IMG/VR virus record: IMGVR_UViG_3300027386_000002
Location: 1 to 39,409 of that record
From: a virus
Reading direction: 5' to 3' (one strand)
Length of the DNA: 39,409 nucleotides
Below, in pieces: positions 1-39,409 of the stretch; the stretch's first letter is position 1, and each line of letters begins with the position of its first letter. Position numbers and translations under genes: made by a program. The notes beneath the pieces are model-generated. The model was not told where the DNA came from and made no database searches. It worked only from the letters and a program-made list of their open reading frames with translations.

Positions 1-99
1 CTAACCAGCGGCGTGGATACGTGGATAGTGATGTGGATAAGCGGCGCTATTATGCCCGACTCGACGGGGGCTTGTTCCATATCCCTCGACAGCAATAGT
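1..99. repeat. Terminal 99-bp overlap identical to 39311-39409; circular or terminally redundant genome with a true unit of about 39310 bp
   Basis: The first 99 nt (ctaaccagcggcgtggatacg...cagcaatagt) recur exactly at the window end. An exact fixed-length overlap is typical of a circularised assembly. Confidence 0.9.
13..40 (+). repeat. Three direct GTGGATA heptamers upstream of conserved element copy A
   Basis: gtggatac at 13-20, gtggatag at 21-28 and gtggataa at 33-40. A related pair (gtggatgg, gtggataa) precedes copy C at 23340-23365. Confidence 0.7.
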
Positions 100-138
100 C
101 CCGTACGGGGCGGAGTAAGGGGCCTGTAATCCAGACCT
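55..138 (+). repeat. Conserved approximately 83-nt element, copy A (CCCGACTCGACGGGGGC-N14-TCGACAGCAATAGTCCCGTACGGNGCGGAGTAAGGGGCCT-N1-2-AATCCAGACCT)
   Basis: By manual alignment it is near-identical to 10457-10539 and 23379-23461. All three copies lie on the plus strand. Variation is confined to a 14-nt internal segment. Confidence 0.85.
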
Positions 139-170
139 ACCAGAGAGCTTGTGGTGAAGGGGCTTGGAGA

Positions 171-256
171 ATCGGCGCTACTGGGAGCGTATTGGGGGCG
201 TCCCTGTGAGATCGGCGCATAGGCCTTGTTGCTGGGCCTATTGGCCAGATCGGCGC
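171..256 (+). repeat. Three direct ATCGGCGC octamers spaced 40 and 38 bp apart
   Basis: atcggcgc occurs at 171-178, 211-218 and 249-256. Two of the three are preceded by G, which creates GATC. Confidence 0.7.
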
Positions 257-287
257 TTAGAATGGCGTACAGCGGCTCGTATCAAGA

Positions 288-791
288 GGCTGCGCTGCCG
301 GTTGTTTTGGCCCGTACGGGCTTATCGGTGATGCTGGCTCGCCGTCCTGCCCGCCCTTCCTAGTCTTGTGCCCCCTTCCCCTGCTGCCTCTTCGTCCGGC
401 GAAGGAAGAGAGCCTAAGCGGCTGTGCTGGTCGCTTTGTCTTGGTCGTGGCTGGTAGGGTAGTGGACTGGGGCCCGGTCTCCTGCGCTCCGCCTTGGCCT
501 TAGCGCCCGTCGTCTGTTGCCTTGGCCTTGTCCTACCTCCGTTGCGCCTATATCCCGTCGCGGCTCGGGTGGTGCGCCCCTTGCCGCTGACGGCCTAGTA
601 GGCCCTACGGGCTGTACGGGGGTAGGGGGCGGCACTCTAACGGTGTGAGCTTAGCGGGCCGCGCTCCCCTTTCCCGTTTCCCCCCAGCGCCGCCCTCGTG
701 CGTCGGAACGGGGCCGCTGGCCTCCCCGGCCCTCCTTCCCCCCATCGCCGCCCGGCATTGCTGCGTTCTCATCGGGCCGATGGGCAATGAG
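288..791 (+). repeat. Macro-repeat unit 1 (about 504 bp) of the A-depleted array
   Basis: It starts ggctgcgctgccggttgttttggcccgtacgggcttatcggtgatgctggctcgcc. The segment 437-640 aligns to 941-1144 with only 13 substitutions. Confidence 0.8.
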
Positions 792-1191
792 GGCTGCGCT
801 GACGGTTGTTTTGGCCCGTACGGGCTTGTCGGTGATGCTGGCTCGCCGTCCTGCCCACCCTTCCTAGTCTTGTGCCCCCGGCCCCTTCGGTCGTGGTGGT
901 GGTGGCGATGGCGGCTTGGAGCCGTGGCGACTTTGTTCTTTGTCTTGGTCGTGGCTGGTAGGGTAGTGGACTGCGGCCCGGTCTCCTACGCTCCGCCTTG
1001 GCCTTAGCGCCCGTCGTGTGTTGCCTTGGCGTTGTCCTACCTCCGTTGCGCCTATATCCCGTCGCGGCTCGGGTGGTGCGGCCCTTGCCGCTGACGGGCT
1101 GGTCGGCCCTACGGGCTGTACGGGGGCGAGGGGCGGCGCTCCAACGGCGGGAATCGTCGTAATTGGCTGGGTGGGCTGCGGCGTCGAGACA
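792..1191 (+). repeat. Macro-repeat unit 2 (about 400 bp)
   Basis: It has the same start motif (ggctgcgctgacggttgttttggcccgtacgggcttgtcggtgatgctggctcgcc) and the same internal order as unit 1. Confidence 0.8.
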
Positions 1192-1470
1192 GGCTGCGCC
1201 AACGGTCCTCTTGGCCCTACGGGCTTGGCGGTGGTGCTGGCTCGCCTTTCTGCCCACCCTTCCTAGTCTTGTGCCCCCGACCCCTTCTGTCGTGGTGGTG
1301 GTGATGGTGGGAGCATGGGAGCACAGTGGCTTTGTTCTCTGTCTTGGTCGTGGCGGGTAGGCCAGTGGCTTGGGGCCCGGTCTCCTGCGCTCCGCCTTAG
1401 CCGCTCGGCCCGTCGTGTGATGGCTGGGGCCTTGGCCTTGTGTAGTGCGCGGTGGCCTCCTTAGCGGGCG
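1192..1470 (+). repeat. Macro-repeat unit 3 (partial, more diverged)
   Basis: It starts ggctgcgccaacggtcctcttggccctacgggcttggcggtggtgctggctcgcc. It continues with the ccttcctagtcttgtgccccc and gtcttggtcgtggc blocks seen in units 1 and 2. Confidence 0.7.
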
Positions 1471-1720
1471 GCTGACGGTTCGGTATGATAGCGGTTGTTT
1501 TGGCCGCCTTGTCCGGGGGGTAGTCTCTTGGGCGCTCGTCGTAGTTGGCTGGGTGGACTCAGACGCCGCTGCGGCAGCGCTTCGCGGGCCTTCGCTGGGG
1601 CAATCGTAGTAGTTGGCTGGGTGGACTCAGGCGCCGCTGCGGCAGCGCTTCGCGGGCCTTCGCTGGGGGCGGCTGACGCGTCGGTATGATAGCGGTTCTC
1701 TTGGCCGCCCTGTCCGGGGG
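1469..1720 (+). repeat. Pair of 52-nt direct repeats about 200 bp apart (cggctgacgNNtcggtatgatagcggttNtNttggccgccNtgtccggggg)
   Basis: 1469-1520 and 1669-1720 differ at only a few positions. Confidence 0.75.
1536..1669 (+). repeat. Tandem duplication of a 68-nt unit, two copies
   Basis: The unit tcgtNgtagttggctgggtggactcagNcgccgctgcggcagcgcttcgcgggccttcgctgggg occurs back to back. A third partial copy lies at 1151-1190. Confidence 0.8.
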
Positions 1721-2501
1721 CTGTCGCCCACCCAACTGCGCTGCTCCCCCATCCCCCCGGGTACCTCCCCGTCCGCTGCTCGCCCCCCCCCGTGCTCTTC
1801 TGATGGGCCGTGTGCTCACCAGCGATGTGACGGGAGCGTACGCGATACTGGCTTGGATGTTGTTCGCGGGGGTCTGCGCGTCGTGTGCTTGTCCGGTGTG
1901 TGCCGTCTGCCCTGTCTCGGTATCGTCAGCTCATCGTCGCTGGTTTCCCGCGTCATTCTGTAGCGGCTCTGCTGCGTCGGTTGACGGGCCGTGTGCGTCC
2001 CAGCCCGCCCCGTGCGCTGTTCGGCCTTCGCTCGCTCCCCCGCTCGGCCTGTCCTTCCTCTCCGCACCGAAGGGCGGCACTGTTCGATCTGCGGTCACGG
2101 TGGGGTCGTGGCGGCCTCTCGTTCGTTGTTTTGCGCTGTGTCCGTCTGCGTCGGCGTCGGGCTGTTGTTGTGCATGCCTAACGGTGGTCGCCTCCTCTCC
2201 TTACGGTGATGGCTGCGTTGGCCGCCCGCTCCTGAGTTGCCAGCTTGAGGCCCCGTCTTGGTCGCTGGGTCCGTCTCTGCCCCCCCCCGTCCCCTCGCGT
2301 TCGGCCTCCTGCGATTGTGTGGGTTTTGCTTTGCCGAGCGTTCCTGTCCGTTTCTCGGGGGGGCCACCCCCCCAGTCCGCTGCTCCCCCTTCCCTTCCCC
2401 TCCTCCCCGTCCGCTGCTCCCCCCACCCCGATGGGGCTTCTTTTGCCGCTGCGCCGACGTGTGATGTGTGCCCTACGGGCTTAGCGGTAATGCTGGCTCG
2501 C

Positions 2502-2575
2502 GGGAGGGCTTCAGCGGCTCGCGCCATCGGTGCAGTTGCAAGGAGAGTCGGCGGTGATGTGGCGCTGCGCTGATG
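2502..2575 (+). repeat. Left copy of an approximately 75-nt direct repeat bracketing the AT-rich block
   Basis: gggagggcttcagcggctcgcgccatcggtgcagttgcaaggagagtcggcggtgatgtggcgctgcgctgatgg aligns with 2814-2888. Confidence 0.7.
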
Positions 2576-3059
2576 GAAAATGCTTACACGCTCCTCCAAT
2601 TTCCAATTTTCACATCATTTGCCTCGAAATCGGGGCTGAGCGTCGTGAAATCTTGACGGAGAGCCTTGTTTTCGCGACGGAGAGCCTTGAAAACCGTTCA
2701 AATTTGACGAGAAATCGCGTCAAAAAAAATTTCTGTCGGAATTTTTGGAGAGACGAGAAATCAACGCAGATTTGCCATGATCGCGTCAAAAAAATTTCTC
2801 ATAGTAAAGTTTTGGAGAGGGCTTCAGCGGCTCGTGCCATCGGTGATTTTGCAAAGAATGTCAACGGTAGCGTGGCACTGCGCTCAGGCGAGAAACAGAC
2901 GCGGCGCAGCGGGAAACTAAAACGGGAGCACGGGATTTAAAGAGAGGGAGCACGCGGGAGCATGGCGGAGCGGAGCATTGCTGAAATCGGGTCAGAAAAA
3001 AATTTATCGGAAGTGAAGCCCTAAACGCGTCCCGTCGTCGTCGCCACCAACCCGAACCA
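2576..3059. promoter_or_regulatory. AT-rich non-coding block with iteron-like repeats; candidate replication origin or regulatory region
   Basis: gaaatcgNgtcaNaaaaaaatttNt occurs 3 times (about 2714-2734, 2780-2800, 2988-3008), ttttggagag twice and gacggagagccttg twice. Composition drops sharply in GC relative to both flanks. Confidence 0.35.
2814..2888 (+). repeat. Right copy of the approximately 75-nt direct repeat
   Basis: ggagagggcttcagcggctcgtgccatcggtgattttgcaaagaatgtcaacggtagcgtggcactgcgctcagg is roughly three-quarters identical to 2502-2575. Confidence 0.7.
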
Positions 3060-3088
3060 ATTATACTTGACAGTCTCCATCAAGTCAA
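3060..3088 (-). promoter_or_regulatory. Near-consensus sigma70-type promoter (TTGACT-17 nt-TATAAT) firing toward lower coordinates into the non-coding region
   Basis: The minus strand reads tgccTTGACTtgatggagactgtcaagTATAATtgg. The -35 box is at 3088-3083 and the -10 box at 3065-3060. No ORF of 60 aa or more lies downstream on the minus strand. Confidence 0.6.
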
Positions 3089-3156
3089 GGCATCACGCAT
3101 GGCGTCAACCGTCGCATCTGTTGCCGTGGTATCCCTTGCCTTGTCGGCCTTCTCGG

Positions 3157-3909
3157 TTACACCACCAGCGTTTCTCGTATCGTCAGGGACGCATTAATCA
3201 GCTTGGAGAACCTCTCTTCGGCAATATTGAGTCCCCCTCCTCCTTCCTGTCCTCCCCCCAGTTGCCCATAGATCCACACATCGTCATCATTGACCATCAC
3301 CGTCCCATATTCGCCTGCTTCGAGCACCACCGTTTCAATCTCATCGCGCTGTCCATCCCTGAGCTTCTCCCACTGTATCTGCATCGTTCTCCAGACCCCG
3401 ATGGCGGCGGCTCCATCCTGCAGCCCTTCCCTTGTCGGCGCGAAGCCCAGCAGCGAGTTAAACACATTGACGCGTGCCGGTTGTGCGTTCAGCTCCACCA
3501 GCCTCCCCGTCACCACTCGGGCGCACTCCAGCCGTCCCCCCTCATCCGTTTGCGGGAACGCGATACGCACCTCATCGACAGCGCTCCTCGTCCGGACCGT
3601 AGCCACAAAGACGCGCCTTGAGTCATCGACCGTCAGGATGAGCGTTTCGATGATCCTGTTATTGTTGAGCAGCATCACCGTCGCGTCTCCCAGCAGGTTA
3701 CAGCCCACGATCCCGACGAAGTCGATCACGTTTCGCCCTCTCTTCAGCATCGTGGCCGTATAGACTCGTTGTTCATCGGCGTGCCGTGTGATCATCTTCC
3801 TTCTGAGGCTTGGCGTGGCCAGATTATCGGCCAGGCTGCCCGTAGCCAGCTCATTAGGCGTCAGCGTCACCCTTTGGAATGGGAAGACCGTACCAAAGGC
3901 CAGTGCCAT
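3157..3909 (-). CDS. Virion/tail structural protein (250 aa), paralog of the 37486-38256 product
   Basis: The track ORF starts at TTG 3927, whereas ATG 3909 has GGAG 8 nt upstream. The blocks MALAFGTVFPF, LRRKMIT, IDFVGIV, RLECARVVTGRLV and W..L...QRDEI align with MAISLATSFPF, LRRRLIT, INFVSII, RLETALIIAGELV and W..L...ERDEL of the paralog. Confidence 0.75.
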   Translation of the reverse strand: MALAFGTVFPFQRVTLTPNELATGSLADNLATPSLRRKMITRHADEQRVYTATMLKRGRNVIDFVGIVGCNLLGDATVMLLNNNRIIETLILTVDDSRRVFVATVRTRSAVDEVRIAFPQTDEGGRLECARVVTGRLVELNAQPARVNVFNSLLGFAPTREGLQDGAAAIGVWRTMQIQWEKLRDGQRDEIETVVLEAGEYGTVMVNDDDVWIYGQLGGGQEGGGGLNIAEERFSKLINASLTIRETLVV

Positions 3910-3925
3910 GTCATCATCTCCATAC

Positions 3926-3996
3926 AAAAAGGCCGCGCAACCATCTTCCTCTGACGTCTCTCCCCAGACACCATCGAGATAGAATTGCGCGGCCTT
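3926..3996 (-). terminator. Hairpin plus T5 run downstream of the capsid gene; possible attenuator or terminator
   Basis: The minus strand carries TTGCGCGGCC paired with GGCCGCGCAA (10 bp), followed by TTTTTG. The loop is long at about 44 nt. Confidence 0.4.
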
Positions 3997-4020
3997 GTAT
4001 CTTATCGAGCCGGAGCGTTA

Positions 4021-4971
4021 TCAGCTAACAGCGGCGGTGAACAGGAATCCCGCGTTCTGTTCGGTCACGTTGTGGTCGTAGTCCAGCCCCACATAGACCG
4101 CATCCGCTTCTGGGTTCTCGACCTTGTACTGGCGCACATAGCGATTACGCTGGTATTCGAAGGAGCGCCCGAACCCTATCTGCAGTGCTTGGTTCATCGC
4201 GGCGTTAGACATGCCCGCTTCTCTCCGGAAGACCAGGCAGTTATCCTGCCAGATCAGCTCGTTATCGGCGTCCGCGCCCTCGTTTGCTTCATCGAAGACC
4301 ATATCACCGACGAAGACGTTCTCGGGCGACAGCCACGTGAACAGCCCGGCGAACTGCTCGGTCGTCAGGTCCCCTTCTCGCACGTACTGGAAGCGGTTGA
4401 CGATCTTTGGGTTGCTCACCAGCGCCGTCCAGACGTTGCCGGCTAGAAGCACGGCGTTGGCCCTCATGCCGCACCCGATGAGCACCTGGAGTGCCGCGTC
4501 GTTGAGGTCGCTGATGGGGTCTCCGTTGTCGGCGTCCCACTTATTAGCCGGCACAGAGGTATAGTTAGCGTTGAACGCGCCAGCCGCAAAGCACTTATCG
4601 CGCGCATCGACCTCAGCCGAGATCATCAGTTGCCCCGTCATGGTCATGGTCATCGCTTCGGACGGGTCGAGCACCTCATCCATATCGAACATGGCGTGGT
4701 TGACATCGATCAGGTCATAGAGGCTGTGGTGGTCGAGGCTGTAGGGGTGGGGCTCCGGCACCCAGTGGCTGCGTTCGGCCGGCTCGAGGTAGGCCCTGGG
4801 GCCGGTATTGACGTGGCGCAGGTTCTCGGGCCGCATGATGTACACGCTGCTCTTTTTCTTCGTCACGTACTTGACGGGGAAGGGTCCGTTACGCACGGAC
4901 ATCGGGTTGTTGTAGGCCAGCGACAGATCGCTCAGTGGCCTACTTACATAGGTCGTGCCTTCGGCTGGCAT
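4021..4971 (-). CDS. Major capsid protein (316 aa), lambda gpE-like / HK97 fold
   Basis: AGGAG lies 8 nt upstream of the ATG. The gene follows the protease, scaffold and decoration genes. Its size and sequence character resemble the Phage_cap_E family, but homology could not be searched. Confidence 0.75.
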   Translation of the reverse strand: MPAEGTTYVSRPLSDLSLAYNNPMSVRNGPFPVKYVTKKKSSVYIMRPENLRHVNTGPRAYLEPAERSHWVPEPHPYSLDHHSLYDLIDVNHAMFDMDEVLDPSEAMTMTMTGQLMISAEVDARDKCFAAGAFNANYTSVPANKWDADNGDPISDLNDAALQVLIGCGMRANAVLLAGNVWTALVSNPKIVNRFQYVREGDLTTEQFAGLFTWLSPENVFVGDMVFDEANEGADADNELIWQDNCLVFRREAGMSNAAMNQALQIGFGRSFEYQRNRYVRQYKVENPEADAVYVGLDYDHNVTEQNAGFLFTAAVS

Positions 4972-4993
4972 AGTCTATTCTCCTATATGGCCG

Positions 4994-5368
4994 CTATCGT
5001 TCGAGGGTAAGGATCTGCGCTACTTCGCCGTTGGCCGCGCCACCGATGCACCTACCGATGCTGTTGGCGGTGGCCGCCGCGCCGTCGGATACGACCTTAG
5101 CGGCGTTGTTGGCGCGGACGAAGTGACCGTCCGCGATGGCCCCGGCCGCGGCCACGCGCACCGTCTGCGAGTGTCTCCAGTCGGCAATCGGCACCACATC
5201 ACCCGCGGCCCGGGGCGCCTCGTAGAAGACACCGTCGGGCTTGGCGTTGTTGCCCGTGGCGATCATGCGGCGGTTGGCCGAGATGTTGCAGAGGGTGAAG
5301 GCCTCAGCGGCGGCGGCAGCGCCCCCGGAGGCATAGCTGACATATACAACTCCAGAATCAAGGGCCAT
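4994..5368 (-). CDS. Head decoration / cement protein (124 aa), DUF2190-like
   Basis: It is a small Ala/Gly-rich protein encoded immediately upstream of the capsid gene. GAGGGG precedes the ATG. Confidence 0.55.
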   Translation of the reverse strand: MALDSGVVYVSYASGGAAAAAEAFTLCNISANRRMIATGNNAKPDGVFYEAPRAAGDVVPIADWRHSQTVRVAAAGAIADGHFVRANNAAKVVSDGAAATANSIGRCIGGAANGEVAQILTLER

Positions 5369-5371
5369 GGG

Positions 5372-5899
5372 TTAGGTTCCCCTCTGCCAGTCGGCCACAC
5401 CGATCTCTTCGGCCTCGTAGGCTTTGCGCTCGTCGTCTTTGAGTTCGGCGACGGCTTGGTTGTAGGCGTCCACGCGGTTGAGGGTCGGGTCTTCCTTGAC
5501 CAGCACGGCCACGCGTTCGCCGATCTTACCGCTGACGGATTCCGCGTCTTGGCTATCATCGTTGCCTTCTCTTTGCGATCCGTTCGTTTTCTGCGCGACC
5601 AGGCCGTCCGGCAACAGGCACCAGCTATCGTCGTTTTGGTCGGCCAGCTGTTTGCGTGCCTGGGCGCTGTCGGCTTTCTCGATCCGATCCATGATGGCAT
5701 CGAGCGAGGCCACCGGCACCGCGCCGCGCTCGGCGTGCTTGCTGAGCCTCTCGCGCGCTTGCACCAAAGCGGCCTCATGCTCGGCCTTATCGTTGGCCTG
5801 ACGCGACTCCACCAAGGCGGCAATGACGGCATCCACGGACACCTCTTCCGGAGCGATGCCGAGCATTTCGGCTACTTGCTTCCTCTGTTCTTCGTTCAT
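5372..5899 (-). CDS. Probable scaffolding protein (175 aa)
   Basis: It is acidic and looks helical, and it lies between the prohead protease and decoration genes. The call is positional. Confidence 0.5.
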   Translation of the reverse strand: MNEEQRKQVAEMLGIAPEEVSVDAVIAALVESRQANDKAEHEAALVQARERLSKHAERGAVPVASLDAIMDRIEKADSAQARKQLADQNDDSWCLLPDGLVAQKTNGSQREGNDDSQDAESVSGKIGERVAVLVKEDPTLNRVDAYNQAVAELKDDERKAYEAEEIGVADWQRGT

Positions 5900-5972
5900 G
5901 GTTTCCCCTTTGTTGGTGGGAAAGGGTTTACGGTAAAGATAGTTTCAATCCACGCCAACGCAAGCGAGGCGA

Positions 5973-6674
5973 CTAGGGTCTGAAAATAGAATCGGCAAAT
6001 CCCTTGTCAACAGCCATGCTGGCGGACATGTAGGTCTCTGCGGTCATCATGCGGCGGCACTGCAACACCGACAGGCCGGTCGACTCGGCATAGATGGAGG
6101 CCATCATGGCGTTCTTCTCCACGACGTATTCGGCCAGCGCGGTCGCTTTCTGGGCCACTTTCTTCAGGCCGTTCTCGTCGTAGTAGCCGTACGCATCAAG
6201 CGGGTATCGCACCTCGTGGATCATCATGGATCCCATGTCCGCAATCTGCCTTTGGTCGGCCAACTGCGTCAACAGGGTCGATCCGCTGGCGTCCATACCC
6301 TCCACCAGCGCATTGATCCTGCCGCCCTCCTGCTGATACATCTGCAGGCGCAGCCGGCAGCGTGCCGCCTCATCTATCTGGCCACCCGGCGAGTTGATAC
6401 GCAGCATCAGCTCGTTACCCGTGACACGGGCCATCTGCTCCTCGAACACGCCGTAGGTCATGTAGTTCGACTCACCGTAATAGCGCATCATATCGCCCAC
6501 CCTCTCGGAGACGAACGGGCCATAGATGAAGATGGTGTTCTCGGCGTACTCCCTTGGCCTAAAAGGCATGGGCCGGTCTTCGTCCCTCTCTTCGGACATC
6601 TCGGCCACGGCGCCCTTGTAGCAGGCGGCCCACAGCGCGGCGACTGGGTCTTTATTCTTCGGTTGGTTCGTCAT
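5973..6674 (-). CDS. ClpP/S49-like prohead maturation protease (233 aa)
   Basis: It carries the motifs INSPGG, GMDASGSTLL (serine nucleophile context) and MMIHEV (histidine). It overlaps the end of the portal gene. Confidence 0.8.
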   Translation of the reverse strand: MTNQPKNKDPVAALWAACYKGAVAEMSEERDEDRPMPFRPREYAENTIFIYGPFVSERVGDMMRYYGESNYMTYGVFEEQMARVTGNELMLRINSPGGQIDEAARCRLRLQMYQQEGGRINALVEGMDASGSTLLTQLADQRQIADMGSMMIHEVRYPLDAYGYYDENGLKKVAQKATALAEYVVEKNAMMASIYAESTGLSVLQCRRMMTAETYMSASMAVDKGFADSIFRP

Positions 6675-7965
6675 CGGATTCCTCGTTTGGTTGGTCGTCC
6701 GGCTGATCGATTGGCGGCTGTCTGGGTATGCCCTTCTCCACGAGCTTCATATCAGCCCTAAGCTGGGCCTCGAGGTCGTCGTCCGGGACGATGAAGCCAC
6801 CGCGCCCGAGGCGCTCGATGTGCTCGGCGATGCGAAAGACGCGGGTGGCGTCGAGGTTGGCCCACCGCATCAGCGGCCTAGGCGCCGCATCCCCGAAGTT
6901 GAAGGCCACCAGCTTCTTTATGATATCAATATTAATGGCATCGACCACCTCGTCGAGCAGCGAGCCGAGCACGTTGAACAGTATCTCGTAGAGGTCGGAG
7001 GACAAGGAGCGGTTGGCCGTTTCACTTTCAGACAGGTCGAGGATATGGCTGAACAGCGAGCGGCTGATCTCTAGGTTGTAGTACCGGAAGCGGCCCAGTA
7101 TGTCCACCTCCGGGCGGGCCGACTGCAAGTACTCGAGCTCGAGCCGGTCCTTGGGCAGCAGCAGGTAGGACGACTGATGGGAGGTCATGCGACTAAGCAG
7201 CCCACGGAAAACGTTGCGCTCCGCCAGAGAGACCTCTTCCTCGTAGCGTCCCACCGGCAGGGGCATCAGTTGCCGTCGCGTCCCCAGCAGGTCGGCGTAG
7301 AACAGTTGCAGCTTGGCGAACCAAGGGCGATAACAGGAGCGCAACAGGCTGCGGCCGCGGTGGCTGTCGCCGATGGAGTAGGGCGAGAAGTAGCAGAGCC
7401 GGTCGCGTAGCAGTGTTATCTGTTGGGGCATGTCGTTGTCGTCGTTGACCTGCTGGACGACACTCGTGACGTGGCCCCTATCGTCGTTAAATTCCTCGAT
7501 ACTGTTCTGCCACCGGAACTCAGTCGACAGGGTGTTAGCGCCGTCCATGAACGGATAGGCCAGCTCGTGGATCGAGAAGCCATGCTCCAGCGAGGTGAGC
7601 ATTTCCCTGAGCAGCTTGCGGAAGTTGGCGCGCGGGTTGGGGTCGACAGCGTCGTCGAGGCCCAACTCGTTGGCGACGAAGGAGCGGACCGTCTCGTCGC
7701 CACCCTCCAGCGTGAACGTCGAGCTGAGCAAAGGGGACTTGAGCAGCAGCAGGTCGGACGCCACCTGGCTGTCGTCGCGGGCCATGAACCCATAAATGAG
7801 ATTCGAGCGGCGACCGGCCAGACTACTGGTGTCGTAGTCCCCGAGGTTATCGTCTATAGGCGGTATCGGCGAGGCGTCGGCGAACGGTGCCCAAGCGATG
7901 GGGCTCAGGTCGTAGTCGTAATCACCTTGCGAGTAGAAGTTGCCCAGCGAGTTGAATAGTCCCAT
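6652..7965 (-). CDS. Portal protein (437 aa from ATG 7965)
   Basis: It is a large ORF directly upstream of the protease gene. The track start at 8016 is TTG, and alternative ATG starts lie at 8007 and 7965. ATG 7965 lies 8 nt after a TAAGTT -10-like box and avoids overlap with the divergent gene. Confidence 0.7.
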   Translation of the reverse strand: MGLFNSLGNFYSQGDYDYDLSPIAWAPFADASPIPPIDDNLGDYDTSSLAGRRSNLIYGFMARDDSQVASDLLLLKSPLLSSTFTLEGGDETVRSFVANELGLDDAVDPNPRANFRKLLREMLTSLEHGFSIHELAYPFMDGANTLSTEFRWQNSIEEFNDDRGHVTSVVQQVNDDNDMPQQITLLRDRLCYFSPYSIGDSHRGRSLLRSCYRPWFAKLQLFYADLLGTRRQLMPLPVGRYEEEVSLAERNVFRGLLSRMTSHQSSYLLLPKDRLELEYLQSARPEVDILGRFRYYNLEISRSLFSHILDLSESETANRSLSSDLYEILFNVLGSLLDEVVDAINIDIIKKLVAFNFGDAAPRPLMRWANLDATRVFRIAEHIERLGRGGFIVPDDDLEAQLRADMKLVEKGIPRQPPIDQPDDQPNEESDDEPTEE

Positions 7966-7969
7966 GGTG

Positions 7970-7998
7970 TTGAAACTTACAGATTCTTTCGCTAAAAT
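7970..7998 (+). promoter_or_regulatory. sigma70-type promoter TTGAAA-17 nt-TAAAAT for the packaging operon
   Basis: The -35 box is at 7970-7975 and the -10 box at 7993-7998. The ATG at 8006 lies 7 nt after the -10 box and has no SD, which implies a leaderless or near-leaderless mRNA. Confidence 0.55.
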
Positions 7999-8002
7999 AC
8001 AA
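7974..8002 (-). promoter_or_regulatory. Candidate divergent promoter TTGTAT-17 nt-TAAGTT for the head operon
   Basis: The minus-strand -35 box is at 8002-7997 and the -10 box at 7979-7974, followed by 8 nt and then ATG 7965. The match to consensus is weaker than for the plus-strand partner. Confidence 0.35.
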
Positions 8003-8005
8003 ACC

Positions 8006-8386
8006 ATGAGATTCAAGAGCGAGGCCGCGTTTCAGAAGCACGTCATAGCCATAGCCAAGCTGGGCGGCTGGGAGGTCTTCCATCAGGGGGACATGCGCCA
8101 CATCCTCTCGGGCGTGGGCTATCCCGACCTAACGCTCATCAGCCAGCGTGAGCCGCGCGTGATTTTCGCTGAGTTGAAGACGGACAAAGGCGAGAGGAGC
8201 GCGGAGCAGGTCAGATACGCCGCAGTAATCTCGTCGTTGGGCATCCGGGGCGTCGAGTACTATCTATGGAGGCCCAAGCACCTTGAGAAGATCAAGCAGG
8301 TGCTCAAAGGAACGGGCGATCCGGAGCGAAGACGACGCTTCACCGCCACGCTGGGACTCATGCTAAAGGAGAGCAACAAGAGATGA
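8006..8386 (+). CDS. VRR-NUC family PD-(D/E)XK nuclease (126 aa)
   Basis: It carries GYPDLTLI...VIFAELKTDKGERSAEQ, the classic VRR-NUC D...E.K...Q pattern. The track ORF begins upstream at 7940, but ATG 8006 fits the promoter. Confidence 0.75.
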   Translation: MRFKSEAAFQKHVIAIAKLGGWEVFHQGDMRHILSGVGYPDLTLISQREPRVIFAELKTDKGERSAEQVRYAAVISSLGIRGVEYYLWRPKHLEKIKQVLKGTGDPERRRRFTATLGLMLKESNKR

Positions 8387-8667
8387 ACATATGCGGAGCA
8401 CCATGCTCACGGACGGGCAACGGGATATGTAAAAACAAGGTTAGGCGCAAGGGCCAACTATGCTATGCCCACAAAGACCTCAAGCACTTCACTCAGTTGG
8501 ACATAGCCGAAGTCGTCCAGCTCCTCATCGTAGAGGGCCGCAGAGGGCTTGACAGCTTGGATACGATAGAAGACCCAAGCGCTCGCGCTCTGGCCACCAG
8601 AGAGGCTTGCCGCTGCTTCTCGACGATGGCGGCCTTATGCAAGCAATTCCAGGTCAAGTTCGAGTAA
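8383..8667 (+). CDS. Small zinc-ribbon protein (94 aa); possible small terminase by position
   Basis: AAGGAGAG precedes the ATG, and its start forms an ATGA overlap with the upstream stop. The N-terminus is CGAPC...C.N.V..KGQLCYAH. It lies directly upstream of the packaging ATPase. Confidence 0.6.
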   Translation: MNICGAPCSRTGNGICKNKVRRKGQLCYAHKDLKHFTQLDIAEVVQLLIVEGRRGLDSLDTIEDPSARALATREACRCFSTMAALCKQFQVKFE

Positions 8668-8668
8668 C

Positions 8669-9682
8669 ATGGCAATAAAGGTCAACGCATCGGGAGGGGA
8701 GCACGACCTGTGGCTGCCCGGCGACGAGCGCATCGAGGACTTGGAGCTGTTCACCAGCCAGCAGTTGGGCATGAACATCACGCCGGAGATGGTCCTTTCC
8801 CGCAGCAAGAAGAACCAGCAGTACAAGCGGGCCACGGCGCTGACCCGGCAGCAGGTCGACACCATCCTGTCGGTCAAGGAGCACCGGCGCACCGTCGTCC
8901 GGGGAGCGCACAGCCTGGGCAAGTCCGTGGCCATAGGCGTCTTGGGCTGTTGGTGGCTGACGCGCAAACGCGACAACATGGTGCTGATGGCGTCCGCCAA
9001 AGAGGATCAGGTGTCCAAGGTGCTGTTCCCCAACATGTTGGGCCACTACGTCCGGGCGTTCGGTAGGCGCGGCAAGCTGGGCGCACTGCAGGTCTATCCC
9101 GACCAGCTCGCCCATCCCAAGTGGTGCGCCATAGGCATCAGCGGCCAGAACACCGAGGCTTTCGCCAGCTACCACCCGCACGGCGACGGCGAGGTCTTGC
9201 TGGTAATCGATGAGGGCAGCGCCATGACCGACGCGCTGGCGCAGGCGGCCGAGGGGCTGATAAGCAGCGAGGCGGCGCGGATAGTGGTGCTGGGCAACCC
9301 GCTCAACACCCAGCCGCGCGATCCCTTCCGCGCCTTGTTCACCGACAAGCAGTACAATAGGATTCACTGGAAGACCAGCGAGCATCCCAACATCCAGCAT
9401 CAGAGGCCGATCTATCCTGGTTGCATCTCCCAAAAATGGATCAACGAGATGATTGAACGGCACGGGTTAGAGTCCGACCAGGTTCAGGCGCGTTGCTTCG
9501 GGGAGTTCCCGCCCATCAAGACCGACTCCGAGAAGGGCAAGCTCATCGACGTGAATGCCGTTGCCCAGTCATCGGGCTTGACCGTCGAGGAGATATTGGC
9601 CGAGATGCACAGCGAGGAACCGGAAGTAAAGGACCTGTTCCATTTCGTGGGGCAGGGACACACCTACTCACAGGGGGTATGA
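8669..9682 (+). CDS. Terminase large subunit, ATPase domain only (337 aa)
   Basis: It has Walker A VRGAHSLGKS and Walker B VLLVIDEGS, plus a linker-like motif FGEFP. The ORF stops about 60 aa later, with no RNaseH-like nuclease domain. Confidence 0.7.
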   Translation: MAIKVNASGGEHDLWLPGDERIEDLELFTSQQLGMNITPEMVLSRSKKNQQYKRATALTRQQVDTILSVKEHRRTVVRGAHSLGKSVAIGVLGCWWLTRKRDNMVLMASAKEDQVSKVLFPNMLGHYVRAFGRRGKLGALQVYPDQLAHPKWCAIGISGQNTEAFASYHPHGDGEVLLVIDEGSAMTDALAQAAEGLISSEAARIVVLGNPLNTQPRDPFRALFTDKQYNRIHWKTSEHPNIQHQRPIYPGCISQKWINEMIERHGLESDQVQARCFGEFPPIKTDSEKGKLIDVNAVAQSSGLTVEEILAEMHSEEPEVKDLFHFVGQGHTYSQGV

Positions 9683-10500
9683 TGAGACTACTATCGAACG
9701 ACGAGATCAAGGCCGGGTGTCAGGCGGCCAACATCATCCAGATGAGAGGTTGGGGCATCCGCGCCAACAGTCCCTTGGTCGGCAAGGGCGCGTTGGTCGA
9801 GGTGAAGGTGCAGGGCGGTGAGTGGTCCAACGCCAAAACGGGCGAGTCCGGGCAGATATGGAACATAGAGGCTTCATTCGTTCAGGAGATAGACGACCGC
9901 TCCGAGATCATGAACGTGCTCGACCGGATCATGGGCGAGGGGCCGATAGGGTTGTATGAGGATATATTCGCTCAGGGGTTTCGCAACCAGTTCGCCGCGA
10001 TATGCTGCCAAGGCAACATGCCAAGGGCACGGACGTTGATGCCGGCGTTCAAGCCCGAGGCGGAAGCATCGACCAGCGCCGCCAAGCGCGGATGCGCCAA
10101 CAGGGAGACCGAGGTAGCGGTGGAGTTTCAGGACATAATGAGCAATGCGACGACGAAGTGGTCGCCCTTCCAGCGACGCAACTATGCCAGGCCGAGGGAC
10201 AAGGCCGCGATCCACGGGCGCGAGTTGGCCAAGGCTACTACCATAGCCGTGGCGACGCATCCGACGCAACAGGGGATTAGTAGGATCAACCGCAGCAAAG
10301 GGGAGCAGCCCGCTCTGGATGCGCTATTGGCCGGTTGTTGGATACTCAATCGGGAGATCCAGAGGAGGTCGTTCAGGCCAAAGGCGGGGCCCAGAGCCGA
10401 CGAGCGTGGGGCATCACTGGACAGCGCCACGATGGCGCGATCGGTAGCAGAATCATCCCGACTCGACGGGGGCATCCTCCGTTTTCCTCGACAGCAATAG
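9679..10500 (+). CDS. Hypothetical protein (273 aa)
   Basis: Its start forms an ATGA overlap with the preceding stop. The N-terminal 110 aa or so look globular (KGALVEVKVQGGEWSNAKTGESGQIWNIEA has a weak OB-fold flavour). The C-terminal half is low complexity. The last 20 codons are read out of conserved element copy B. Confidence 0.5.
   Translation: MMRLLSNDEIKAGCQAANIIQMRGWGIRANSPLVGKGALVEVKVQGGEWSNAKTGESGQIWNIEASFVQEIDDRSEIMNVLDRIMGEGPIGLYEDIFAQGFRNQFAAICCQGNMPRARTLMPAFKPEAEASTSAAKRGCANRETEVAVEFQDIMSNATTKWSPFQRRNYARPRDKAAIHGRELAKATTIAVATHPTQQGISRINRSKGEQPALDALLAGCWILNREIQRRSFRPKAGPRADERGASLDSATMARSVAESSRLDGGILRFPRQQ
10421..10437 (+). repeat. Left copy of a perfect 17-bp direct repeat (acagcgccacgatggcg) flanking element copy B
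   Basis: The identical 17-mer recurs at 10542-10558. It contains the mini-hairpin cgcca-cga-tggcg. Confidence 0.9.
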
Positions 10501-10539
10501 TCCCGTACGGCGCGGAGTAAGGGGCCTCAATCCAGACCT
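10457..10539 (+). repeat. Conserved approximately 83-nt element, copy B
   Basis: It aligns with copies A and C. It lacks the upstream GTGGATA heptamers and sits inside a 104-nt segment (10438-10541) bounded by the 17-bp direct repeats. Confidence 0.85.
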
Positions 10540-10541
10540 GA

Positions 10542-10558
10542 ACAGCGCCACGATGGCG
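10542..10558 (+). repeat. Right copy of the 17-bp direct repeat
   Basis: acagcgccacgatggcg is identical to 10421-10437. Confidence 0.9.
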
Positions 10559-10635
10559 TGGTTGTAAGTTTAGCTTGGCTTAGGCGGCCAAAAAGAGGGC
10601 CGCCACGCCATAGCTTGAGTTATAGGATAGCACAC

Positions 10636-10687
10636 GGGCCGCCCTCGTCGCGCTGACGCGCGTTTTCGGGCGGCCCTTCTCTTTGTT
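10636..10687 (+). terminator. Rho-independent-type terminator after the packaging block
   Basis: The stem GGGCCGCCC / GGGCGGCCC encloses an inner cgcg hairpin and is followed by TTCTCTTTGTT. Confidence 0.5.
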
Positions 10688-11063
10688 CGGACGTCTTAGA
10701 TTTGAACTTAGGTAGTAGTCGCGTTTTGCCCCTCCCCACCCCCCGGGCCTTCCATTCTTGATAATCGTTATTTAAGGAGTAAAAACAGCAGATAGGGAGC
10801 GGGTGGTTGGTGGCGGGTTGGTCTGGCGTGGTTGGGCTTGGGTGCTGGAGAGCGCACAGTCTGGTGTGTGTAGTGGGCGGGTGCGCTGGCAGTCTCTACC
10901 GTCTTGTGTAGTTGTCCCCTTTAGGTGTTACCTTCTGTTCCCTTTGGGTATCAGTGCGCGTGCCGGTTGTGGCCGCGTGGCTGGGTGCATGTTTTGCACG
11001 TTGTAAGCAATTGTCTTGCAACGAGTTATGGGCAAGTTAATTGTTTCACATGGAACAATAGTT

Positions 11064-11080
11064 TGGCATGGTTTTTGCAT
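11064..11080 (+). promoter_or_regulatory. sigma54 (RpoN)-type -24/-12 promoter upstream of the first early gene
   Basis: TGGCATG-GTTT-TTGCAT matches the consensus TGGCACG-N4-TTGCW at 11 of 12 specified positions with exact spacing. It lies 41 nt upstream of ATG 11121. Confidence 0.6.
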
Positions 11081-11120: not shown

Positions 11121-11486
11121 ATGAGAGTTATAGTTTGCGGTGGCAGAGATTATCACGATAGCGAGCGGGTCTGGCGGGTGCTGGACGGTATCCATGCGAG
11201 GGAGTGCATCCACGTCGTAGGGCATGGAGCGGCGCGGGGAGCGGATAGCTTGGCGGGAGCGTGGGCGAGGGAGCGCGGCGTGATGGAGTTCGCACGTCCA
11301 GCGCAGTGGACGGAGTATGGTAGAGCGGCGGGGCCAAGGCGCAATAGCGAGTTGCTCAGGGAAGTGAAGCCAGCGCTGGTGGTGGTGTTCCCCGGCGGAG
11401 CAGGCACGGCGGATATGCGGAGGAAGGCGCAGCGGCAGCGGGGCGTGAAGGTGGTGACGGTCGCCGAGTCGGGAGGTTCGTCGTGA
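11121..11486 (+). CDS. SLOG-superfamily DUF2493-like protein (121 aa)
   Basis: AGGAGG precedes the ATG. The blocks MRVIVCGGRDY...GHGAARGADSLAGAWARERGV...GPRRNSELL...VVVFPGGAGTADM match the DUF2493 pattern as I know it. Confidence 0.8.
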   Translation: MRVIVCGGRDYHDSERVWRVLDGIHARECIHVVGHGAARGADSLAGAWARERGVMEFARPAQWTEYGRAAGPRRNSELLREVKPALVVVFPGGAGTADMRRKAQRQRGVKVVTVAESGGSS

Positions 11487-11635
11487 ACCGCTTGGCGGTG
11501 GTGGCTTGGTGGGTATTGGTGGCCCTCGTCGTGGCGTCCGGCGGCCTGCTCGCGCCGCTGTTGTTGGTCGGGCTGGCATGGAAGAACCGGCCCGACCACG
11601 TACACCAGCCCGAATGGCTGAAGTGGTTGTGGTGA
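11483..11635 (+). CDS. Small membrane protein (50 aa)
   Basis: It starts at a GTG that forms a GTGA overlap with the upstream stop, with GGGAGG 7 nt upstream. It has one hydrophobic helix, VAWWVLVALVVASGGLLAPLLLVGLAW. It falls below the track cutoff. Confidence 0.5.
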   Translation: MNRLAVVAWWVLVALVVASGGLLAPLLLVGLAWKNRPDHVHQPEWLKWLW

Positions 11636-11723
11636 TAGTGCGTCCCCTCGTGGGACGCGGAGTGTTACCCAAGGGTTTGGGGGCCAGCACATAACCGCGC
11701 ACACGCGCAGGAGGATTGAGAAG

Positions 11724-11870
11724 ATGAAGACCTACGTCATAAGAACATGCGAAGGCGATGAGGAGGTCGCGTTACTCATAGAGAAGTGGGAAAGCTACGG
11801 ATGCTATCTGCACAGTTGGCAGTACGACAGAGAACACAACGAATGGATTATGGTATTTAAGGAGGGCTGA
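11724..11870 (+). CDS. Hypothetical small protein (48 aa)
   Basis: AGGAGG precedes ATG 11724, and the ORF is tightly packed against the next gene. It falls below the track cutoff. Confidence 0.5.
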   Translation: MKTYVIRTCEGDEEVALLIEKWESYGCYLHSWQYDREHNEWIMVFKEG

Positions 11871-11871
11871 C

Positions 11872-12066
11872 ATGAAACTCTGTTCAGACTTCGCCAGTGG
11901 GCCGCGGTTCGATGAGGCGCGGCACGAATTCGAGCGGCTGGAATCCGACCCCGACGCCACGCCGAGGCAGAGGGCCAGCGCATACAAGCGAATGATGAAG
12001 GCGCATAGGGCGCTACGAGTAGAGGCGACGGGCAAGGCCAAGCGACAGACGAAGGCATGGGAGTAG
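11872..12066 (+). CDS. Hypothetical protein (64 aa)
   Basis: The ORF has GGAGGG upstream and sits in the co-directional early block. Confidence 0.6.
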   Translation: MKLCSDFASGPRFDEARHEFERLESDPDATPRQRASAYKRMMKAHRALRVEATGKAKRQTKAWE

Positions 12067-12070
12067 GGCC

Positions 12071-12382
12071 ATGACCAACGCGCAAGAAACCTTCCTAGAG
12101 CGATTGCTTTTGAGCTCCGCCATCCCGCCAGCCGTTCGCAAGGATGCCCGTCGAGTCATGGCAGACCCGGAGGTGGGCGTTGAGCAGGTGACCATGTTGA
12201 TTGACCGAGTCAAGCAGATCATGGACGAAGCCCCACCGAAGGACCAGAGACCGGCAGCGTGGCGCGTGGCCAGCTTGCAAGCCAAGGTGAAGTATTACAA
12301 CCGGCGCGGCAGCAAGGCCAGCATCAAGCCGCTGGTGGCCGACATTGAATGGCTCGCAGAGCAGAAGGAGGTAGCACAATGA
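12071..12382 (+). CDS. Hypothetical protein (103 aa)
   Basis: The ORF is tightly spaced in the operon. Confidence 0.65.
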   Translation: MTNAQETFLERLLLSSAIPPAVRKDARRVMADPEVGVEQVTMLIDRVKQIMDEAPPKDQRPAAWRVASLQAKVKYYNRRGSKASIKPLVADIEWLAEQKEVAQ

Positions 12383-12798
12383 AGACTCGCATGAGATGGA
12401 ACTGCCAAAGCGACGGCTGCTTTTTCGACAAGAAGGTCGCAAGACTCGAAGACTTTGATGACTGCTTTGGTGGCAAGATAGGCATGACGGACGTCGATGG
12501 ACTGGTCGAGCGCAACGGGCACTTCCTGTTCGTTGAATGGAAAGCACCGGAAGAGAAGCTGCCAATGGGCCAACGCATTCTATTTGAGCAACTGACGAAG
12601 TTGTCAGACAAGGTCGTCGTCGTAGTGATACATGGTCATTCATCCATGAGCCAAGGATCGCACCCAGTTCAATACCAGACAGCCTACAAGGGAAGATGGT
12701 CGGCAGTGGAAGAAACCAACATAGACCGGCTAAGAGGATTCCTAAAGCGGTGGTACACGTGGGCAGACAACCAAGGAGACTTTCAATGGCACATGTAG
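12379..12798 (+). CDS. PD-(D/E)XK nuclease, VRR-NUC-like (139 aa)
   Basis: Its ATG forms an ATGA overlap with the upstream stop and GAAGGAGG lies upstream. The pattern GMTDVDGLVERNGHFLFVEWKAPEEKLPMGQ fits D...E.K...Q. Confidence 0.6.
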   Translation: MKTRMRWNCQSDGCFFDKKVARLEDFDDCFGGKIGMTDVDGLVERNGHFLFVEWKAPEEKLPMGQRILFEQLTKLSDKVVVVVIHGHSSMSQGSHPVQYQTAYKGRWSAVEETNIDRLRGFLKRWYTWADNQGDFQWHM

Positions 12799-13313
12799 CT
12801 AAAAACTCGGGCAACAATGAATGGTACACGCCACCAGAGATAATCGAGGCGGCGCGTAGGACGATGGGGAGGATAGACCTTGATCCGGCTTCAAACGAAG
12901 TAGCGCAACGCTGGATAGATGCGGGGAGCTACTACACGAAAGAGGACGACGGATTGCTCTTGTCGTGGGGAGGGCGCGTCTGGTTGAATCCGCCATACGA
13001 AGCGAAGCTGATCGGCCAGTTCGTGGACAAGCTGATCTCCTCAACTGGCATAGAGCAGGCCATCACCTTGACCAACAATGCCACCGAGACCAAGTGGGGT
13101 CAGAAGATATTGGCCAGCGCCAACGCCATCTGCTTCCCAAGCCAGCGCGTCAAGTTCCTCCGCCCCGAAGGCGAAAAGGGCAGCCCATTGCAGGGACAAA
13201 TGATAGCTGGTTTTGGCGTGGACAGAGTGCGCTTTGAGCAGGAGTTTGCACCACTGGGCGCGGTAGTCTTCACCTTGGTTCACTTGGGTAACAGTGATGT
13301 TTCCTTTAGGTAA
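12786..13313 (+). CDS. Phage Dam-type DNA N6-adenine methyltransferase (175 aa)
   Basis: It carries NEWYTPPEII, DLDPAS and WLNPPY (the catalytic NPPY), which match the phage N6A methylase family layout. Confidence 0.85.
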   Translation: MAHVAKNSGNNEWYTPPEIIEAARRTMGRIDLDPASNEVAQRWIDAGSYYTKEDDGLLLSWGGRVWLNPPYEAKLIGQFVDKLISSTGIEQAITLTNNATETKWGQKILASANAICFPSQRVKFLRPEGEKGSPLQGQMIAGFGVDRVRFEQEFAPLGAVVFTLVHLGNSDVSFR

Positions 13314-13356
13314 CACTTAGACGAAGGGGTTCATTGTGCCACAACAAGTTACAAGG

Positions 13357-13373
13357 TGGCACGGATTTTGCAA
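13357..13373 (+). promoter_or_regulatory. sigma54 (RpoN)-type -24/-12 promoter, perfect consensus
   Basis: TGGCACG-GATT-TTGCAA lies in the 116-nt gap between genes, 57 nt upstream of ATG 13430. Its -24 box is the right arm of the inverted repeat GTGCCAC-N13-GTGGCAC (13336-13362). Confidence 0.7.
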
Positions 13374-13837: not shown

Positions 13838-13838
13838 A

Positions 13839-15214: not shown

Positions 15215-15215
15215 C

Positions 15216-23339: not shown

Positions 23340-23365
23340 GTGGATGGTATGGTATTGTGGATAAG
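23340..23365 (+). repeat. GTGGAT(A/G) heptamer pair upstream of element copy C
   Basis: gtggatgg at 23340-23347 and gtggataa at 23358-23365. The arrangement is the same as upstream of copy A. Confidence 0.65.
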
Positions 23366-23378
23366 CAACCCTGTTATG

Positions 23379-23461
23379 CCCGACTTGACGGGGGCATATT
23401 CCATTTCCATCGACAGCAATAGTCCCGTACGGCGCGGAGTAAGGGGCCTCAATCCAGACCT
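23379..23461 (+). repeat. Conserved approximately 83-nt element, copy C
   Basis: It aligns with copies A and B. It ends 23 nt before the tail-fibre ATG and 9 nt before its AAGGAGA SD. Confidence 0.85.
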
Positions 23462-38813: not shown

Positions 38814-39314
38814 ATGATGACCCAATGCGAAGGATGTAGCGTTCTAATAAGCCAGCCAGCAAAGGGAAGGCGTAGGAGATTCTGTAGCGATGCTTGTAGG
38901 AAAAGACTGCGTCGTATAGAGAACGGTCCTAACTATCCCGTAATAGAGTGCGCCAATGAAGGATGCACAGAGCGCTTTGAGAAGTGGAGCCATAACCACC
39001 GATTCTGTTCGGCTACCTGTAGGAATGCGGCCCAGTATCGGCGCAATAAGCCCCCATCAGAGGAAGTATGGATAGAGTGCGCTTCTGAATGGTGCAATGA
39101 GCATTTCAAGCGCGTCCACCCAAACCAGCGCTATTGTAGCGCTTCTTGTAGAGGCGGCGATATATCCATGTTCGGCGATCCATTGCCAGAAGATTGGGGA
39201 GAGCGGCTGGAGGAGAAGGCTAATCAGCGGCGAGCGTCTAATGGAAGACCCATAAAGCCCGGACAAGGATACTCTTTACCCTATCCGGGGCGAGCGGCTA
39301 ATGGAGAAGACTAA
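38814..39314 (+). CDS. Triple FCS/TRASH-like zinc-finger protein (166 aa)
   Basis: AGGAGG lies 5 nt before ATG 38814. It has three repeats of C-x2-C-x11-13-(F/Y)CS-x2-CR: CEGC...RFCSDACR, CANEGC...RFCSATCR and CASEWC...RYCSASCR. Confidence 0.7.
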   Translation: MMTQCEGCSVLISQPAKGRRRRFCSDACRKRLRRIENGPNYPVIECANEGCTERFEKWSHNHRFCSATCRNAAQYRRNKPPSEEVWIECASEWCNEHFKRVHPNQRYCSASCRGGDISMFGDPLPEDWGERLEEKANQRRASNGRPIKPGQGYSLPYPGRAANGED

Positions 39315-39409
39315 CCAGCGGCGTGGATACGTGGATAGTGATGTGGATAAGCGGCGCTATTATGCCCGACTCGACGGGGGCTTGTTCCATATCCCTCGAC
39401 AGCAATAGT
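39311..39409. repeat. Terminal 99-bp overlap identical to 1-99
   Basis: It is an exact duplicate of the window start and includes the first 45 nt of element copy A. Confidence 0.9.

Follow-up and report, generated by a model that had tools for sequence, protein, structure and literature searches.

The nut sites of lambda and the ops sites of RfaH are short cis signals that lie in the transcribed leader after a promoter, occur only a few times per genome and are oriented with transcription. They are read largely by sequence via a dedicated factor, and they serve long or terminator-containing units. The put RNA of phage HK022 is a cis element of approximately 70 nt, present in more than one copy per phage, that lies 3' of promoters and 5' of terminators and needs two defined stem-loops. 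The stoperators and start-associated sequences of mycobacteriophages are lineage-specific, orientation-biased short repeats of 13-17 bp, found in many copies at gene boundaries and with roles that are regulatory or unknown; the repressor that binds stoperators is known. In T4-type phages, PeSLs open with a stem-loop and continue with a sigma-70-type early promoter, a Shine-Dalgarno sequence and a start codon; they are repeated boundary motifs, arranged as direct repeats along transcription and tied to insertions and deletions, and they have been proposed to mediate modular shuffling (PMC2839356, PMC4122927). As an analogy only, the leader of a CRISPR array is also a conserved non-coding unit at the transcription-start end of a long array, and carries its promoter.

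Here we describe an element of 82-83 nt that recurs three times in the genome of an uncultured tailed phage (the window, by which we mean the whole 39,409-nt stretch of DNA that was analysed) and that belongs to no catalogued family. Judged by analogy, it would seem to work most like the leader-embedded processivity signals nut, ops and put, and it is PeSL-like as a portable boundary motif, but it fails the defining features of each. Both nut and ops (approximately 12 nt for the latter) are far shorter than 83 nt, and the element has neither a boxA-like or ops consensus nor a covarying boxB-type hairpin; the sole boxB-like candidate, a CCCG/CGGG hairpin of 4 bp, shows no covariation and is broken in the related phage L014. 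No homologue of N, Q or RfaH was identified among the window ORFs. Size and multiplicity are shared with put, but stable or covarying structure is not, and with respect to position a -10 hexamer abuts copies A and C of the window and the copy of the related phage L035, with a clear downstream terminator at copy B only. Like a PeSL, the element is a repeated motif that is found at gene-block boundaries and oriented with transcription; in contrast to a PeSL, it contains no stem-loop or inverted repeats, has a -10 sequence only outside the core and only in some copies, is present in three copies that mostly precede non-coding DNA, is not called as a promoter in the window, and is followed by a start codon only at copy C. 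The window array that copy A precedes lacks the short regular repeats and the cas genes of a CRISPR locus, its modules being degenerate and approximately 500 nt long, and one copy of the element precedes a protein gene. At 83 nt and three copies, the element also differs from stoperators and start-associated sequences.

Because window positions 39311-39409 repeat positions 1-99, the genome is circular, with a length of approximately 39,310 bp (Table 1). Protein searches found its portal to be less than 27% identical to that of any cultured phage, and searches of cultured phages by DNA similarity returned nothing useful. This phage and the contigs of its relatives come from marine-sponge metagenomes; the source data sets include SRR8092756 with its sister runs, ERZ27241794-97, and JGI 3300002159 and 3300027391.

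Table 1. Coordinates of the element copies and of neighbouring features in the window
Feature	Position	Strand	Remarks
Upstream extension of copy A	13..54	+	GTGGATA three times (13, 21, 33); perfect DnaA-box 9-mer TGTGGATAA at 32-40; TATTAT at 48-53, then G54
Copy A core, 83 nt	55..137	+	CCCGACTCGACGGGGG ... CCAGACC; from alignment, repeat finder and profile
A-poor (8% A) non-coding array	141..2580	+	begins right after copy A; homologous modules in the L014, L036 and L037 arrays
Head genes: portal, protease, scaffold, major capsid protein	3157-8016	-	
HNH gene and terminase split in two ORFs	about 8006-10500	+	sigma-70-type promoter at 7970-7998
Left 21-nt direct repeat flanking copy B	10417..10437	+	CTGGACAGCGCCACGATGGCG
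Copy B core, 82 nt	10457..10538	+	within the 3' end of the terminase C-terminal ORF
Right 21-nt direct repeat flanking copy B	10538..10558	+	20/21 identical
Strong intrinsic terminator	10636..10687	+	approximately 95 nt 3' of copy B; z = -3.3, then U-tract
Short A-poor, GT-rich tract	10790..11000	+	3' of copy B, just before the sigma-54-type promoter 11064-11079
Early and replication genes	11122-23322	+	
Upstream extension of copy C	23340..23378	+	GTGGATGG; perfect TGTGGATAA at 23356-23364; TGTTAT at 23372-23377, then G
Copy C core, 82 nt	23379..23460	+	stops 24 nt short of ATG 23485 of the 1306-aa fibre-like gene
1306-aa fibre-like gene	23485-27405	+	
Lysin gene		+	
Tail-associated block	28765-38256	-	
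Gene for Arg-rich protein with three CGNR/FCS-type zinc fingers	38814..39314	+	directly upstream of copy A
Assembly duplicate of the first 45 nt of copy A	39365..39409	+	window end = window start; not a fourth copy

Several of the genes have features of their own. The large terminase is encoded by two adjacent ORFs (window 8669-9682 and about 9685-10500) with an HNH-like endonuclease gene just 5' of them; across the window, L011 and L014 the ATPase part measures 337-371 aa and the nuclease part 244-272 aa, and L013 has a homologue of the nuclease part and an unmatched ATPase-part ORF. The 1306-aa protein that is labelled as a fibre begins with a Sec-type signal-peptide-like N-terminus (MQQFLSLLMMAWALSYGLVAVNAQS, window 23485-23560) and has no Pfam match; it may be a secreted or surface protein, not a classical fibre. 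ORFs of the early region (13860-14095 and 15822-16111) contain GGN-rich repeats of 6-12 nt in long runs, which encode Gly/Asp/Ser/Trp-rich low-complexity peptides. Within an intergenic stretch, CGCCCCGGCCTCATTGAAGC occurs twice, 73 nt apart (window 17461-17483 and 17534-17556), and the Rfam family CRISPR-DR16 matches positions 17422-17480 with a score of 35.6 against a gathering threshold of 35. This pair may represent a small array carried by the phage, or a lone mimic of a CRISPR repeat.

Alignment and a repeat finder placed three copies of the element, all on the plus strand, with pairwise identities of 89-93% over an 83-column core. One 16-nt block occurs three times in the window against 0.08 expected, and an nhmmer profile found no further copy on either strand besides the assembly overlap. 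The core is GC-rich, its borders are sharp, and its conserved positions fall into three blocks (1-16, 32-45 and 56-82) that are separated by two variable spacers; read from the alignment, the block centers are approximately 30 bp apart, or roughly three helical turns. An earlier note on this DNA had described three near-identical copies on one strand, and so there are. It had also held that they differ only in a 14-nt internal segment: this segment is real (15 nt, element positions 17-31), but the copies also differ at position 8 (C/T), at position 55 (G/C) and by an extra 1-nt insertion close to the 3' end of copy A. The extent that had been given to the element left out approximately 30 more bases that copies A and C share upstream of the core.

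Copy A lies after the zinc-finger gene and before an A-poor array of 2.4 kb. Copy B sits at the 3' end of the plus-strand terminase operon and is followed by the terminator, the A-poor tract and a perfect sigma-54-type promoter. Copy C, the only one that directly precedes a gene, occupies most of the 162-nt gap before the fibre-like gene, a gap with no other recognizable promoter. In all genomes compared, every copy has the same direction as its neighbouring genes, and the minus-strand operons of the window have no copy. What the earlier note had placed after each copy (the array after A, the terminator and GT-rich tract after B, and the tail-fibre gene after C) lies there at the positions in Table 1, and its gene map and modules are essentially right, except that the minus strand encodes the head genes that come after copy A. 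Its statement that each copy starts a plus-strand region needs to be narrowed: C does precede a gene, but A is followed by a non-coding array and B is found at an operon's 3' end.

To follow the element beyond this phage we used three lineages of relatives that were reached via portal homologues and widened through cluster members: L011/L035, L014/L036 and L013/L037, with portals that are 85%, 50% and 55% identical, respectively, to that of the window. Outside the window phage, copies were found only in the first two of these lineages, both of them rare. Across the window, L011 and L014, 57 of the 83 core columns are invariant, and the flanking sequences could not be aligned even for L014 and L036, which are close to each other; the combination argues that the element is a discrete, selected unit. 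L011/L035 has one copy directly after the terminase stop codon and a second one, in L035, after the zinc-finger orthologue, with 21 nt visible before an assembly gap. The order of zinc-finger gene then element is therefore kept between the window and L035, and the two proteins are 71% identical; no zinc-finger homologue was seen in the partial L011 and L014 sequences examined. The copy of L014/L036 comes after the terminase genes, a strong terminator and approximately 150 nt of C-poor, TGGAT-rich repeats, and is followed by an A-poor tract of 1.3 kb. The earlier note had proposed the presence of the element in related phages with the same gene order as a check, and the outcome is divided: L011/L035 and L014/L036 have it, but a profile search of L013/L037 found no recognizable element, including at the same junction of terminase and early genes. 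L013/L037 has an A-poor array with modules homologous to those of the window, at the start of which there is a non-significant look-alike of the 5' half of the element only. The cassette is thus dispensable.

The three window copies are mutually closer (89-93%) than copy B is to its positional counterpart in L011 (78%), and they have in common derived states that the L011 and L014 counterparts lack, namely A at position 5, T at position 62 and the palindrome CCCGTACGG as second spacer. These common states suggest that copying or gene conversion took place recently in the window lineage. Exact-pattern scans found no further match in IMG/VR and none in 185,579 GTDB species genomes, and in JGI metagenomes returned only the same phage plus 12 chance matches. 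Portal-based IMG/VR scans gave nothing useful, phages with homologues of the fibre N-terminus were unrelated and had no copy of the element, and two window proteins had no exact match on record. In L035 we also observed two features that were not seen in the window: a tRNA-Gln(UUG) gene (1107-1203, plus strand) between the A-equivalent copy and the array, and a second, very basic single zinc-finger protein (2360-2650, minus strand) encoded upstream of the triple zinc-finger gene.

The element is conserved as sequence and not as an RNA fold. ARAGORN found no tRNA or tmRNA in the window, and Rfam, with its small ribozymes, riboswitches and HEARO/omega RNAs, gave no match to the element at gathering thresholds or at permissive ones (E<=10 for copy C, E<=1 for positions 1-3100 and E<=5 for the B region), in agreement with the initial failure to fit it to a tRNA or a known small ribozyme. 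It contains no inverted repeats, and its folding z-scores of +1.0 to +1.7 on both strands are worse than those of shuffled sequence. The RNAalifold consensus has only 14-22 weak pairs on either strand, with no convincing covariation. A helix scan returned one plus-strand helix of 4-5 bp, positions 5-9 with 58-62, in which an A-U pair is exchanged for G-C, and one minus-strand helix. When the columns were permuted, helices with one covarying pair arose in 27% of cases for a single strand and in 45% when either strand was allowed, so this covariation is not significant; a pair-count permutation control gave 46/500. The put-like antitermination RNA that the earlier note had suggested is consequently not borne out, there being no stable fold, a weak consensus structure and covariation within chance. 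Within the element, CUCGACGGGGG ... AAUAGU, together with a short frame that a UAA closes, resembles the 5' part of tmRNA. We rejected this look-alike, which has no ARAGORN or Rfam match and no acceptor arm and loses its frame in L011 and L014. A coding micro-ORF was rejected as well, on the basis of an in-frame TAG in L011 and of 1-nt indels in the second spacer and in copy A. Variable sites fall mostly at codon position 2 and are not third-position biased; the element is non-coding.

Promoter scans found no full sigma-70 promoter and no sigma-54 site within the core, as had been the first impression. Immediately outside it, a sigma-70 -10 hexamer ends one base 5' of the core in copies A and C and in L035 (TATAAT), and it is retained though the sequence farther upstream has diverged. 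The L035 copy is called as a promoter (TGGACG-16-TATAAT, score 10/12); the -35 regions of A and C are poor, and neither is called. The hexamer is not present at the B, L011, L014 and L036 copies. In L014 and L036, the element is preceded at approximately 190 nt by a strong terminator, and no sigma-70 promoter was called in the interval; the element there would be transcribed only by read-through or from an unrecognized promoter. Promoters for a phage polymerase were set aside, as no phage RNA polymerase was found.

Other DNA signals accompany some of the copies. The window genome has just two perfect TGTGGATAA sites, one 14 nt 5' of A and one 14 nt 5' of C, and upstream of the L014 copy we find TGTGGATAG and TGGAT-rich repeats. 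Genome-wide, DnaA-box matches are not above chance, and the box is absent at B and L011; the AT-rich repeat DNA that might be expected of an origin is 2.5 kb off, at the far end of the array. The 5' half of the element reads CTTGAC-N15-yTCCAT in C, L011 and L014 and is altered in both hexamers in A and B, and no site of this type occurs at any other operon start. The sigma-32 consensus is CTTGAA/CCCCAT (PMC10216364). Perfect sigma-54 sites (TGGCAC-N5-TTGCW) are found in the window only at 11064 and 13357, both outside the element. As a separate observation, perfect sigma-54-type promoters (TGGCAYN5TTGCA) at window 11064-11079 and 13357-13372 and at L011 6653, 5262 and 744 (minus strand) precede early genes, and a conserved TATATRGGGYAACAGCAGTTCACT stands behind each promoter. 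Early transcription that depends on sigma-54 would be surprising in a phage, and no enhancer-binding protein for sigma-54 was found in this one.

What the element heads, A-poor arrays on the kilobase scale, is a more unusual feature than the element itself. In five of the six full copies (A and B of the window, L011, L014 and L036) adenine makes up 0.23-0.35 of the sequence 5' of the element and drops to 0.07-0.17 on its 3' side, and the element thus marks the upstream end of A-poor tracts; no such drop is seen at copy C. The arrays are A-depleted on the strand of the early genes in the window and in its relatives (L014 5880-7120, L036 downstream of 7135, L037 950-2640 and L035 1-900). They are built from degenerate modules of approximately 500 nt each, and the lineages compared have in common motifs such as GTCTTGG.TGCGTGGCTG and GCGCTGACGG..GGTGRTGCTGGCTC. 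Beyond CCCGTACGG in the window, no motif is common to element and arrays. Folding indicated that the array is not thermodynamically structured, and window 1-3100 had no Rfam match at E<=1. A CsrA-type GGA sponge on the minus strand was considered and rejected, the GGA count being as expected and the hairpin-loop GGA being lost in L014.

The surroundings of the window array offer some observations in their own right. A near-consensus sigma-70 promoter at the end of the head operon (3088-3060, minus strand; TTGACT-17-TATAAT, 11/12) points into the array, so that convergent transcription may enter the array from its two ends. In the window (2580-3060) and in L037 (600-950), the far end of the array has an AT-rich region with short direct repeats, for example GACGGAGAGCCTTG and GCGTCAAAAAAATTTCT in the former and AAGCGGCCTAAATGGCGC in the latter; this region is a candidate origin or regulatory hub. 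Two paralogues (3157-3927 and 37486-38256, both on the minus strand; 28% identity, E = 1e-28) flank a block that comprises the AT-rich region, the array, copy A, the zinc-finger gene and a regulatory region. L013 and L014 each have a single homologue of the pair at the head-tail junction, where L014 has other cargo.

Copy B may bear traces of its arrival. It is flanked by two 21-nt direct repeats, with a score that 0/500 shuffles reach, and the stop codon of the terminase C-terminal ORF (TAG, 10498-10500) falls within the copy. Read in frame after 10416, the right repeat continues as ...LNSATMAWL to a TAA stop (10565-10567), and removal of the first repeat and the insert yields an intact terminase 3' end. 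Repeats at A are weak (20/500 shuffles reach the score), and none were found at C. The recombination cassette that the earlier note had listed among its possibilities gains some support from the duplication around B, but the likeness that had been drawn to PeSLs does not extend to their definition. As a MITE or IS end the element also fares poorly, with no inverted repeats, flanking repeats at B only and no match in GTDB; 21 nt is unusually long for a target-site duplication, and no transposase or integrase is present among the window ORFs scanned.

Taking these observations together, we tentatively favor the reading that the element is a portable transcribed leader or start cassette for plus-strand units, which would be read by its sequence and not by an extended RNA fold. 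Conservation of sequence without structure, the abutting -10 hexamer, the co-orientation with transcription and the position at the head of non-coding tracts make this the best of the explanations considered. The initial idea of a cis-acting RNA signal survives in this form, with -10 hexamers that abut the core in its favor, but its folded, put-like version is unsupported. In A-type copies, host RNA polymerase would start near element position 5-6, which corresponds to about 59-60 in A and about 23383-23384 in C, and at B-type copies transcription would read in from the upstream terminase operon. A factor would then recognize the first 80 nt or so, whether in the nascent RNA or in the non-template strand that the early elongation complex exposes; by adjacency alone, the Arg-rich triple zinc-finger protein encoded beside copy A is a candidate for it. 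Much as at nut or ops sites, this recognition would decide what becomes of transcription downstream, making transcripts processive, terminator-resistant or stabilized. Non-coding A-poor transcripts could then reach kilobase length, polymerase could pass the terminator that follows B, and the fibre and lysis genes 3' of C could be expressed. Several facts speak against a start cassette: the -10 hexamer is missing from four copies, A and C are not called as promoters, only B has a clear terminator downstream, L013/L037 has an array without the element, and the minus-strand operons do without a copy.

The conservation in blocks without an RNA fold would also suit a site of approximately 80 bp that proteins read as double-stranded DNA, and so would block centers spaced at three helical turns. 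Such a platform could be an alternative, sigma-32-like promoter, or a site for a regulator or replication initiator that, with TGGAT repeats and DnaA boxes, marks the edge of an origin-like region made up of the array and AT-rich, iteron-like DNA. The resemblance of CTTGAC-N15-yTCCAT in C, L011 and L014 to the sigma-32 consensus favors the former, but its spacing is one base longer than that of the dnaK P1 promoter, no operon start has another such promoter, and the most conserved part of the element is 3' of the putative -10, which is unexpected for a promoter. For an initiator site one may cite the two perfect TGTGGATAA sites 14 nt 5' of A and C, the TGTGGATAG and TGGAT-rich repeats of L014, and the AT-rich repeat DNA after the array in the window and L037; set against these are box matches that do not exceed chance genome-wide and are missing at B and L011, and a GC-rich core that is unlike a DNA-unwinding element. 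A double-stranded binding site does not need to be consistently co-oriented with transcription, and we regard a DNA-level platform as rather unlikely. An independent gene for a small RNA, or a put-like folded RNA able to modify RNA polymerase unaided by protein factors, would fit the size of approximately 83 nt, the sharp borders, the terminator after B and the A-U to G-C exchange in the helix 5-9/58-62, which is seen on the plus strand only. The element nevertheless folds worse than shuffled sequence on both strands, its consensus pairs are weak, its covariation is at chance level (comparable helices in 27% of permutations for one strand and 45% for either), Rfam has no match, and A and C have no terminator of their own; we find an RNA of this kind very unlikely.

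A further reading is that the element is mainly a selfish or recombination cassette, one that copies itself or is exchanged between co-infecting phages at insertion-tolerant or shuffled junctions and has no regulatory role of its own. Excision between the 21-nt repeats that leaves an intact terminase 3' end, the sharp borders, window copies that are closer to each other than B is to its L011 counterpart, the patchy distribution among relatives, and the location of the block of copy A, array and zinc-finger gene between two paralogous genes are all in keeping with such a cassette. It would nevertheless be one without terminal inverted repeats, without a transposase or integrase among the ORFs scanned, without consistent flanking repeats (weak at A, absent at C) and without a match in the 185,579 GTDB species genomes or IMG/VR. 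Invariant blocks beside freely varying spacers indicate selection on function, and essential genes would be lost if direct repeats 10-16 kb apart recombined. On balance we consider a mainly selfish or recombination cassette improbable. The readings are not fully exclusive, as a regulatory cassette can also spread by duplication, which is what the insertion at B suggests.

A bolder extension of the leader reading, which we consider quite improbable, is that the cassette is the signal of a new protein-dependent transcription-processivity system, read by the triple FCS/CGNR zinc-finger protein and launching kilobase A-poor non-coding transcripts that would act as origin-activating R-loop RNA or as a nuclease-resistant decoy. 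If so, the arrays would represent a new kind of phage non-coding RNA locus with a leader of its own. Should the element turn out to be only a recombination or insertion cassette, it would still mark junctions of genome rearrangement. In either event it offers a short and clean object for experiments with reporters, 5'-end mapping and protein binding. If the leader reading is right, a modular, copyable leader would switch on non-coding DNA that makes up approximately 7% of the genome together with a late gene block, and would provide an experimental way into the function of the conserved A-poor arrays. It would also be a case of a regulatory signal, read by its sequence, that spreads by duplication to new operon junctions.
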